Shown piece by piece: positions 59,101 through 64,000 of a stretch of 64,000 nucleotides of DNA; the first letter of the stretch is position 1, and each line of letters opens with the position of its first letter. The DNA comes from Escherichia coli O157:H7 (lineage in GTDB: Bacteria; Pseudomonadota; Gammaproteobacteria; Enterobacterales; Enterobacteriaceae). The stretch lies in NCBI RefSeq assembly GCF_013167455.1, contig NZ_CP038328.1; one strand, 5' to 3'. The position numbers were made by a program.

Positions 59101-62100
59101 GCTTACGACCAGCGGCAACATCAGCACGCAGAGTTTCATTTTCAGCTCTCGCATCGGCTAATTCCCTCGAGTATTTTGCATCGAGCGCAGCAACATCACG
59201 CTGGCGCACCTGCATGTCAGTAATGGTGGCATTCGCCTGTTCCAGCTCTCTGGCTTTTTTATCGCGCTGCGCTTTGTAGGTGAGCGCGTTGTCACGGTAA
59301 TGGTTTGTTGCCAGCCACAGCGCACCACAGCCAACCGCCATGACAATAATCACCACACACAGAACACGGTTCATCTCTCTTTCACCCCACCAGTCCCGAT
59401 AACGTCAGGACTCGCCAGGCGGTGGAAAAGAAAATGGCAACCAGCATGACTAAAAATGAAATGCCGACAAGTACACAGAGGCTCTTCACCAGCGTTATGA
59501 GTTTATCTGATATCATTAGCCACCCCATCAATCCGCCTTTGTTATTTTCCCTTTGCCTGTATCAGCCAGGACAAAATCAATCAGCATATTCGCTTCATTT
59601 ACCAGCGTACGGATTTTTGATACATGCGCGGCTTTAACCTGTTTCCACTCATTCAGCCCGGTAGCAAACACACTGGCAATGTTTTTATCCCGTTTCATGT
59701 CAGCACAAGCCTGGTTGAGTTCTTCCATCACGCTCATTTTACGGGGATTAACGACAAAACCCTTCGTCCAGTACTCGTAAAGAACATCGTCGCACTCTTC
59801 CTGATACCGGATGACCTTATCGCGGATTTCGGGTTTTACTTTGTTGGGATTAATGGTTTGTAGCCAGCCGGCAAGTTTTCGAAGTGGCATGGACACCATA
59901 TTGCGTTGTTTCCCATCCTCAGCAACCATAACGATTTCCGTTATAGTTGACGCAAAACGCTGTCTTAACTTAGCCAACTGTGATTGCCAGGCCAGCCCCA
60001 TCCCCGCAACGACAGGTTTCATGGGAACGTATGGTTCGCCATTATGGTTAACTACATAAAGAGAGTTGCCGTGAAACGGCACGGCCATCATATTCATCGG
60101 TTATTTCCTTTTAGTGATGAACCTTGTCTCACAGGAATCCAGCCCACAGAAAGGCACCGACAGCCAAACCGGTATCCTCAAGGGTCATCCTGAAAGGTTC
60201 TGTGTTGTGAGATGCGCGTGAGATGCGCAGAAATGACAAAGGCATCATTACGGTGCCTGAGTGTTAAACAACTGTTTTGACTTTATTCACTTACATTTTG
60301 CCAATTTGCAGGATTTCGTGTTATCCGTCCATGTAAGCAAACCTCATTTTTCAGCAAAATATTCTGCTTATCTGTCGATTCCCCAGCACGCCAGCGCGCT
60401 CTCCTGGTCACGACGGGATACCTGACCGTAACAGTTATTTGAGCGAATACGGCAGTCCCTGCCACCGTCCTTAATCCACCAGCGAATCGCTTCGCAGGCA
60501 CCTTTTCGATCTCCTGCATTAATCCGTCTGTAAAACGTCGACGGGAAACACTTACCGGGGCCAATGTTGTACGGACAGAATGACGCAATCCCCGCTTTCT
60601 GGGGTTCGGTCAGTGGCACTCTGATGTTTTTCTCCACCCATGCCAGCGCCTTATCACGCTCAATGGCGTTAACCCGGTCGCATTTTTCCTTCGACAGCTT
60701 CATGCCAGGAATAACAGGCTTACCATCCACCCGGGTGGCTCCACGGCAGATGGTCCAGATACCCGCACCATCACGGTATGCTGTGGTGTGGTTACCTTCC
60801 TTTTCATCCAGAAACTGGTCGAGGATTTCAGGCGCAGACGCCCCTGCACCAATCAGCGCCAGAACGGCAGCCGACAGGCCGTATCTGATTTTTGCGTTCA
60901 TGGATATTTATCAGGGTTTATCGATTTCAAATCCCTGGATATGTTAAGTCTTCAGGCCAGCGGTGGAGTCTTCAGAGAACCCGTAATTATTCCCGGTAGT
61001 TTTCCTCTGTAGGTTATCAACACATCCTGCGCCTCTAAAATTACGGGACGCTTTTCCGGTAACGGACCATCCCCTTCACATAACCCGGCAGCAACATCCA
61101 TGAAAAACTGCTTCGCCTGCTTTTTCGCCTCAGCTTCGTAAAACTCCAGCGTGGCACCTTCAGTACGGTCAAGACTAATCGCCACATCTGGCAACAACAG
61201 TGACGGATACCCACCAATTTCCAGTGCCACAGTAACAGTAATCTTATCCGGGTAATTATTTATCCCTTTAACAACCAGTTCGTATTTTTTCTTCATCGCT
61301 TTACTCTCCCCGCGCCGCCTTACGACGGTCCTCTCTGATTTTGAAATACAGGTTAGTCAGATACGTCAGCAGGCCAAACAGCAGACTCCCCAGCACACCT
61401 ATCGCCACCCACTGGGACGGAGAGACTTTGTCCAGCAGCTGCAGTAACCAGTATCCCGTCCCCACCGCTGACGTGGTGTATGACACACCCGTTGTGATTT
61501 TTTCCATCTGGTACATACCCCGTCTCCCGCAATCCGGAAGCTCACAACAACAGGAGGGGCATCAGCTCACACCGACAGCCCCTGCGTATGGTTACATCAT
61601 CATTTCGCCGCCAGGCTGAGGCTCACTGCTACCGTCAGGCTGAGACACAACGCCATCTGAAACAGCACTGTCACCCGCGCCGTCTTCAGGCTCAGGAGCA
61701 GCCGGTCCCCCCAGCAGCTCATCCAGAATGGCATCCACTTCAGCATCAAGACGCGCCTCAAGATTCTGGCGGAGTTGCTGTTTCAGTGCGCTTCTGACTT
61801 CTTCAGAGCGCAGGACGTCCTTCACTGCTTCAGCAGTGACCAGAGATTTTATTTCTGACATGGGATTTTCTCGTTGAAAGGTGTTGTTAAGAAAGTTGCT
61901 ACGAAATGAGAGGCTCTTCGGGTTTTGTTCCGGCTGACTGGCTGGCGCTGATTTTTTCCGCCGCCGCGGCATCAATCTTTTTGCGTATATAGTTCCGGAT
62001 AACCTTATACCCGCCACTTACCAGATATAACGTGCACACCACCGTGCAGAAATACAATAAAATAAGCTGTACAAATCTCATTATCCCTCCCGGTTATTGA

Positions 62101-64000
62101 TATGGTGTTGACATCGTTAATACCTGTTGGTTAAAAAAGTGTCCTGCATGTTTTGCTTTGGATATAACGACATTTGCCGCCGGTTCTGGCTCCTTGTTTT
62201 CCCTGCCCCGGCGGCCTTTTTTTCCTGCTTACGGGTTATTCACTTCCACTGTTATACTTTCAATCAGCACCGGATATGTCGCACCGCTAGTGATATCGGT
62301 CACGCGCAATTTGTCTGCCGTAAACGTGCCGACCGGTGACTGTGACAGCATGAACGGCGTCCCGTCCTTACCATCAATGACCGGCGTCACCTCAATACTG
62401 TTGTTACCGGCAAAACGGAAGCCCAGCGTATGCCATTCGTTATCAAATGCGCCGAATGACCCCAGCTTCGTGTTCTGACCAGCATTTCCCTTGTGGTACA
62501 TCACATTAAGGTCTGTGGCATCGCTCTGTACGTAAAACGACGCCAGCAGGTTATGACCGGCATTACCTTCCAGTGTGACGCCCTGAGGCAGTGAAGAAAC
62601 CGGCCAGTACAGCGCCAGTGCGTACTGATTAGCTGTCAGTGTGCCATCAACTTTAAAACGACAACTGATAAGCCCGCCCTTCTCCAGCAGGTCTGCGCCA
62701 TTACCGGCATCATGCTGCATAAACCACGAGGAACTTCCTGTCTGTTTGGTCCACCTCAGCGCCTTACCTCCTGCAGCACCTGCATCATCAACTACCAATG
62801 CACGCCCTCCTTCAGCTCCCCATCCCTGCGGATTCAGTAAACCACCTGACTCTGTTGCACGGTAATAAAGCAGCGTTGTCACTGATTTCCCGTCCGTTGA
62901 CGGTGTTGATGGTGTGTCCGGTGACGGCTTCTCATCCGGCGGCATCACAACCTGTTCCCCACCCACCAGTTCAGCCGTCCGTCCTGCATGGAGAAGAATC
63001 GCTGAGGCAAGACGGTCAGAAATAATCCCCCTGCGTGCCCATGAGCTGAAATGGCTCGCACGGTCTGCTGACGTCCAGTTTGCCGACGTCCGGGAGGCCG
63101 CACCGTAATATCCTGATGCCGGAATATCCGGGTCTTCTTCCGGTTTGTTCGTCGGGACATTTGCTCCGTTCTCATCGGTCATGAACGGCACAAAGTGAAT
63201 ATTCTTTTCCGTTTTGTTTTTGTAACTGCCGTACACCGTCTGGTAAGTGGATTCGCTCTTCTGCTTCCAGAAATAAGTTGTGTCTCCACATATCCAGGGA
63301 ACACCGTCAGCAGAACCACCAGCGCACTGTCCCACCATATCTGCAAGGTCCGTACGATATTGTTCCACTACTTCTGTAAAACGGGCTGTGTGATTTGCTG
63401 GCGTTCCGTCAAAGTCAAATTCCCCCTGCATCCACACCACGGCAAGCAGCACATTTTTCGGGTTCTTTGCCAGCGCGGCTTTTGTACGACCGATGAGATC
63501 CTTATACAGCGGCCTGCCCACACCCCAGCGGGTAGAACTCTCTGAGGCACCGGTCACGTCACTGTATGTTCCATCTGCCCCGGTGGTGAAAGCTGAACCA
63601 CCACGGCAGCACGGAACCAGAAGAATACCCGCATTCGCCGGTATAAACGGCAGCAGCTTTTTGGCAATATGCAGCCCCTGCCCCACGGTTCCGTACTGAC
63701 CTTTCGACAGGTCAGCTTTCGGATGGTTAAGACGGCTCATGTCCTGTACATCATGCAGACAGTGGTCTGCCGGAATAATGTCGTTATATTTACAGGGAGC
63801 GCCATCCGGCGTCACTGTGCTGCGACGAGCCAGTTGCTTTATACGCGGGTCAGGACGGTCATATGTCTGCGGCAGAGGAAGCCCCTCACCGTAAGCCATG
63901 CCGTTCGACTGCCCGGCCAGTGGAATAACGTAGTAATAATCTGGCTCCGTGGTGACCACTCCCGGATAGCCACCATCCCCCGTGCCGGGCACAACCACTG

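Follow-up and report, generated by a model that had tools for sequence, protein, structure and literature searches.

A nanS-p esterase gene of an Sp6-type lambdoid prophage, very probably without stx, at the edge of a 64-kb stretch of Escherichia coli O157:H7 DNA

The 64,000-nucleotide stretch of Escherichia coli O157:H7 DNA analysed here (the window; contig NZ_CP038328.1) very probably ends within the nanS-p gene of an Sp6-type lambdoid prophage that lies next to potC, carries T3SS effectors and lacks stx. The initial annotation had recognized a NanS-p-like esterase at the window edge and had taken it to suggest an Stx-type late region, with toxin genes, just outside. The identity of the esterase was upheld, and a Q antiterminator does lie past the window, ~1.25 kb beyond its end in near-identical genomes; the toxin genes were not found in the corresponding flanks of Sakai, EDL933 and ECP19-598. 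Both the gene and the prophage are already known, and the window adds nothing new.

The window's final 4 kb were ~100% identical (rounded) to prophage Sp6 of Sakai, to EDL933 and to many other O157:H7 genomes. Most matches to these 4 kb showed a bit-score difference of one base. In the Sakai annotation the region is named 'prophage Sp6; lambda-like phage', and the esterase gene is ECs_1527. The last 24 kb of the window aligned end to end with Sp6 of Sakai (ECs_1501-ECs_1560; identical in EDL933) at 98.6% identity, and the two share integration beside potC and potB as well as the effector cargo espK, espN and nleL/espX7. They differ at a few strain-level sites (in the tape-measure gene and near position 49,500), none of which falls in the esterase region. 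The whole window was also collinear with ECP19-598, with 99.99% identity over positions 1-29458 and 99.84% over 27001-64000, and the differences were concentrated at two places, the tape-measure gene and a 26-nt indel near 49,500. The collection was searched for a genome with 100% identity to the window and none was found; the best match reached 99.8% over 25 kb. Sp6 has been described as a lambdoid non-Stx prophage of Sakai that carries non-LEE effectors. It undergoes spontaneous induction and can be transferred to K-12, and its repressor, recombination, head and tail genes have defects (PMC2669165). The toxins of Sakai are encoded on other prophages, Stx2 on Sp5 and Stx1 on Sp15 (PMC2669165).

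The features at the end of the window, in the order in which they would be read on the late strand, are as follows.

62229 to 64000, minus strand: nanS-p paralog (prophage 9-O-acetyl-N-acetylneuraminate esterase), codons 57-645 and the stop, with SASA and DUF6645
61899 to 62081, minus strand: DUF1378 small membrane-like ORF of 60 aa, ECs_1528, between esterase and holin (PF07125, E 5.8e-40)
61592 to 61861, minus strand: DUF826 ORF of 89 aa from the annotated ATG, ECs_1529 (PF05696, E 4.5e-34)
61301 to 61516, minus strand: holin S of the P21 class II type, 71 aa (PF04971, E 1e-32)
60952 to 61296, minus strand: YdfR / DUF1327 ORF, between holin and endolysin (PF07041, E 1.7e-46)
60368 to 60901, minus strand: endolysin R, a phage lysozyme (PF00959, E 1.5e-24)
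59528 to 60097, minus strand: antirepressor-like gene with a P22_AR_N domain (PF10547, E 1.4e-45)
58907 to 59374, minus strand: spanin Rz, ECs_1534 and ECs_1535 with Rz1 (PF03245, E 1.5e-39)
58948 to 59154: Rz1 lipoprotein ORF embedded in Rz

The esterase ORF runs off the window end at 64000 on the minus strand and extends down to a stop at 62229; the initial annotation was thus right that the gene leaves the window and that its upstream side lies beyond 64000. The extent given there, 61592-64000, was too long, as the esterase occupies just 62229-64000 and positions 61592-62081 belong to DUF826 and DUF1378. Assignment of 61592-62228 to the esterase was accordingly rejected, this interval being made up of those two separate genes and spacer. 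The mechanical ORF of DUF826 reaches 62017, and the PF05696 match covers residues 53-125 of that long ORF. The ORF listed for the esterase begins at a GTG (63998) and has 589 aa because the real start is outside the window. The start codon would be at virtual position 64166, and the full enzyme has 645 aa, of which the first 56 codons (168 nt) are outside.

A Pfam search of the esterase fragment returned SASA (PF03629, E 3.9e-11) and DUF6645 (PF20350, E 6.1e-71), the latter a lectin-like C-terminal domain. In the full-length identical Sakai gene, DUF1737 (PF08410) matched residues 4-50 (E 3.3e-15); these codons are outside the window, and the same N-terminal domain is presumably encoded in the window's own genome. 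Against solved structures, residues 73-391 of the full-length homolog aligned with chromosomal NanS/YjhS (3PT5, E 2.5e-119) and residues 429-644 with the C-terminal domain of a phage NanS-p (6YP6, E 9.5e-97). The alignment with 3PT5 retains the serine of GQSN and the histidine of SHF, which are Ser87 and His372 of the esterase; these positions were taken from that alignment together with the sequence. The codon of the catalytic Ser87 (GQSN motif) is at 63906-63908 and that of His372 (SHFSS) at 63051-63053. The protein encoded by the window fragment was 100% identical in amino acid sequence to ECs_1527 / WP_000023170.1 over the covered part, and the esterase was 73% identical in amino acid sequence to NanS-p of the VT2-Sakai Stx2 phage. 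Judged by these matches, which are far beyond chance, the gene is a prophage NanS-p homolog. It is predicted to encode an esterase of three domains, namely DUF1737, a NanS-like SASA/SGNH domain and the lectin-like beta-sandwich DUF6645, with Ser and His intact. Chromosomal NanS (YjhS) has the homologous SASA/SGNH core, which corresponds to residues 73-391 here and keeps both the Ser of GQSN and the His of SHF, but it is shorter (the solved chain has 337 residues) and lacks both the DUF1737 N-terminal domain and the lectin-like C-terminal domain. In addition, NanS is chromosomal, whereas the gene described here is a prophage late gene.

As no genome in the collection was fully identical to the window, the flank past 64000 was read in Sakai, EDL933 and ECP19-598, all three near-identical to it. 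Over the first 6 kb past the window end these genomes differ from one another by only 0 and 3 bases, and the order was the same in all three. The following features were found, starting from the window end.

First: the last 168 nt of nanS-p (DUF1737 domain)
Second: a spacer of 314 bp that contains a GC-rich hairpin, then a T-run
Third: a DUF3927 ORF of 55 aa
Fourth: a TerB-family pseudogene with an internal stop
Fifth: a second terminator-like hairpin, immediately downstream of Q
Sixth: the Q antiterminator, 273 aa (PF03589, E 7.8e-49)
Seventh: RusA, DUF968 and hokD, then replication and immunity genes, and the integrase beside potC

Both terminator-like hairpins were identified solely by consensus match. 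Given the near-identity of these genomes, the source genome would be expected to have the same content upstream of nanS-p. The late genes thus follow one another on one strand in the order Q ... nanS-p, DUF1378, DUF826, S, YdfR, R, ant, Rz, and a profile search placed the terminase genes past Rz/Rz1 on the same strand. nanS-p itself falls within the Q-to-holin interval on the late strand of a lambdoid prophage, the Q side of this arrangement being read from the near-identical genomes.

By analogy with the literature on its paralogs, nanS-p would be one of the late genes transcribed from PR' with Q antitermination, and Q-modified RNA polymerase would read through both terminator-like hairpins. 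The N-terminus of the esterase (MSIKHYDVVRAAS...) has no obvious signal peptide by eye, and therefore the protein would be released at lysis of the cell. The released NanS-p would then act on Neu5,9Ac2 of mucin sialic acids, taking off its 9-O-acetyl group to leave Neu5Ac, a carbon source for E. coli. Activity of this paralog as a Neu5,9Ac2 esterase is probable on the basis of its relatives. The activity published for NanS-p is on Neu5,9Ac2 and mucin O-glycans, together with a benefit to the growth of lysogens (PMC8065619, PMC10462455), and this stands against a role in which the esterase mainly serves the phage, for example by de-O-acetylating surface glycans or LPS for receptor access, with the lectin-like C-terminal domain for targeting. 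Such a role has been raised as a hypothesis in a review, which states that there is no experimental evidence for it (PMC8065619). It would fit both the late-gene position, which is conserved across many lambdoid phages, and the lectin-like domain seen in 6YP6, but the gene is outside the head and tail morphogenesis block. A mainly phage-serving esterase is therefore considered unlikely, and release of a sialic acid esterase of use to lysogens is preferred.

The defects of Sp6 in repressor, recombination, head and tail genes, and the adjacent TerB pseudogene, could also be taken to mean that nanS-p is in decay and no longer functional, a remnant within a defective prophage. This is very improbable, since the ORF of 645 codons is intact with its three domains and its catalytic Ser and His, and the gene is carried by ~290 genomes with at least 99% DNA identity over the 4-kb query that holds it. 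Moreover, all tested nanS-p alleles of EDL933, of which there are seven to ten (PMC10462455, PMC8065619), gave active esterases (PMC8065619, a review; PMC10462455).

The closest phage relatives of the esterase are NanS-p of the Stx2 phages 933W and VT2-Sakai (933Wp42, z1466; NP_050541.1) and vb_24B_21 of Phi24B (6YP6). The NanS-p of Stx2 phages likewise has 645 aa with DUF1737, SASA and DUF6645, and its gene occupies the same position on the late strand, between Q and DUF1378/DUF826/holin. The antirepressor-like gene within the lysis cassette is also shared with VT2-Sakai. To this extent the Stx-type late region of the initial annotation is borne out, with Q, a cargo slot, nanS-p, DUF1378, DUF826, holin S, R and Rz in the order known from Stx phages; as a sign of Stx this position of the esterase fails, since many non-Stx prophages carry nanS-p as well (PMC10462455, PMC8065619). 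At the DNA level, the esterase regions of Stx phages are just ~82-84% identical to this one. In a phage collection with several hundred Stx phages, no record covered at least 80% of a query of positions 61000-64000, and the best-covering records were 82-84% identical over 67-74% of it.

A further difference from Stx2 phages lies upstream of nanS-p, where those phages have stxAB and, as in VT2-Sakai and 933W, three tRNA genes (Ile, Arg, Arg) downstream of Q, and the prophage described here has the DUF3927 ORF and the TerB pseudogene. The distance between Q and nanS-p is 2510 bp in VT2-Sakai, including three tRNAs and stx2AB, and 1078 bp in Sp6, measured from the end of Q to the start of nanS-p. 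The stx2AB coding block of VT2-Sakai is 1241 bp long and thus exceeds the room between Q and nanS-p in Sp6. The Q proteins also belong to different families, as the Sp6-type Q (273 aa, PF03589) had no detectable similarity to Q of VT2-Sakai. Within the spacer between stxB and nanS-p of VT2-Sakai, ~135 bp were 72% similar to Sp6 sequence that lies ~175-300 bp upstream of nanS-p, which faintly suggests a backbone common to the two. In the source genome, the place taken by tRNAs and stxAB in Stx phages would hold only the DUF3927 ORF and the decayed TerB gene.

Direct searches gave the same picture. ARAGORN found no tRNA genes in Sakai 22000-28500 or in the whole ECP19-598 and EDL933 stretches, so the tRNA genes that the initial annotation had named as possible neighbours do not appear in the near-identical genomes. 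With Stx2A and Stx2B of VT2-Sakai as queries, tblastn returned nothing at E<=1 in ECP19-598 and EDL933, and only chance matches in the window and Sakai (best E 0.14, all below 22 bits). The annotations of Sakai, EDL933 and ECP19-598 list no toxin genes upstream of nanS-p. The initial annotation had pointed to the adjacent 5 kb as the place for them and had regarded upstream sequence free of toxin genes as contradicting its proposal; such sequence is what the near-identical genomes have. An Stx-converting prophage, with stxAB, tRNA genes and a 933W-type Q just past 64000, is thus extremely improbable even though the genes from nanS-p to Rz are arranged as in Stx phages and most phage-database matches were Stx phages (for which the collection is heavily enriched), given the absence of stx and tRNA genes in 3 of 3 near-identical genomes, the short gap, the unrelated Q, the divergent esterase DNA and the documented non-Stx nature of Sp6 (PMC2669165).

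The whole segment from nanS-p to Q is present in 276 complete genomes. A query of 1200 bp with the window end at its centre gave full-length matches of at least 99% down to rank ~260-320, after which identity dropped straight to ~90%. A count of 413 genomes at 99% or more for this junction query was inflated by very short 100% matches (33 bp), and the figure of ~260-320 for the full junction agrees with the 276 above. Among the 45 of 2889 records sampled, no group of genomes combined this allele with another upstream region; a small class could be missed in such a sample. The source strain could differ past 64000, because no genome in the collection matches it at more than 99.8% over 25 kb. 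Recombination could in that case have placed an stx cassette or other cargo before an Sp6-type nanS-p at potC in that strain, an event to which hardly any probability is assigned.

Genes for esterases of this kind, annotated as SASA or DUF6645, were also found in non-STEC strains, among them UTI89, ST131 EC958, NCTC86 and ATCC 25922, where they adjoin IraM or DUF1737 genes. This agrees with published work, which places nanS-p both in Stx phages and in non-Stx prophages (PMC10462455, PMC8065619). Since NanS-p paralogs are common in non-Stx prophages, the presence of nanS-p does not predict toxin. Thus, a NanS-p esterase beside a lambdoid lysis cassette should not be used as a marker of a Shiga-toxin prophage: many NanS-p paralogs of O157:H7 are encoded by prophages other than those for Stx, and NanS-p is found in non-STEC E. 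coli too. The gene itself is a documented accessory metabolic gene, through which lysogens use O-acetylated sialic acids from mucin.

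In Sp6, a lambdoid prophage of E. coli O157:H7 Sakai that adjoins potC, the slot between the late antiterminator gene Q and the sialate O-acetylesterase gene nanS-p lies at 24168-25245 of the Sakai chromosome stretch L001 (64167-65244 when the window numbering is continued beyond its end). Whereas Stx phages carry tRNA genes and stxAB at this position, the slot of Sp6 in Sakai contains a DUF3927 ORF and a TerB-family pseudogene. The spacer upstream of Sp6 nanS-p includes approximately 135 bp with 72% similarity to the stxB-to-nanS-p spacer of the Stx2 phage VT2-Sakai. Two terminator-like hairpins were located on L001:

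25148-25165, minus strand: hairpin 1, directly downstream of Q
24262-24280, minus strand: hairpin 2, ~100 bp upstream of nanS-p

At its far end, immediately past potB, Sp6 carries a type III effector cargo. Elsewhere in the window, a degraded lambdoid prophage remnant adjoins icd, and a small island resembling a satellite of the P4 or PICI kind lies between phoQ and roxA. The gene content of the island is that annotated in the collinear O157:H7 genome ECP19-598.

Window ~29779-40125: Sp6 effector cargo, including espK, nleB and gogB fragments flanking an IS2, espN and nleL/espX7
Window 1-5329: icd-side remnant, with ybcK recombinase, emrE, ren, replication gene P, truncated O, excisionase and an integrase pseudogene
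Window ~14101-24537: island genes, namely an integrase, Icd-like genes, RepA helicase, SSB, a PerC-family regulator, major capsid protein, head decoration protein and small terminase

The portal gene of Sp6 has an internal tandem repeat (window 50597-51190), with a 162-bp unit (54 codons) present in 3.3 copies with 95% matches. The annotated portal gene is 2580 bp long in ECP19-598 and 2502 bp in Sakai.

Compared with its closest genome, the window differs almost exclusively in two spots, 44500-45500 and ~49500: the tape-measure gene has 23 substitutions, and an indel of 26 nt lies near 49,500. Such clustering in the compared sequences suggests that the differences arose by local recombination between paralogous prophages rather than by point mutation.
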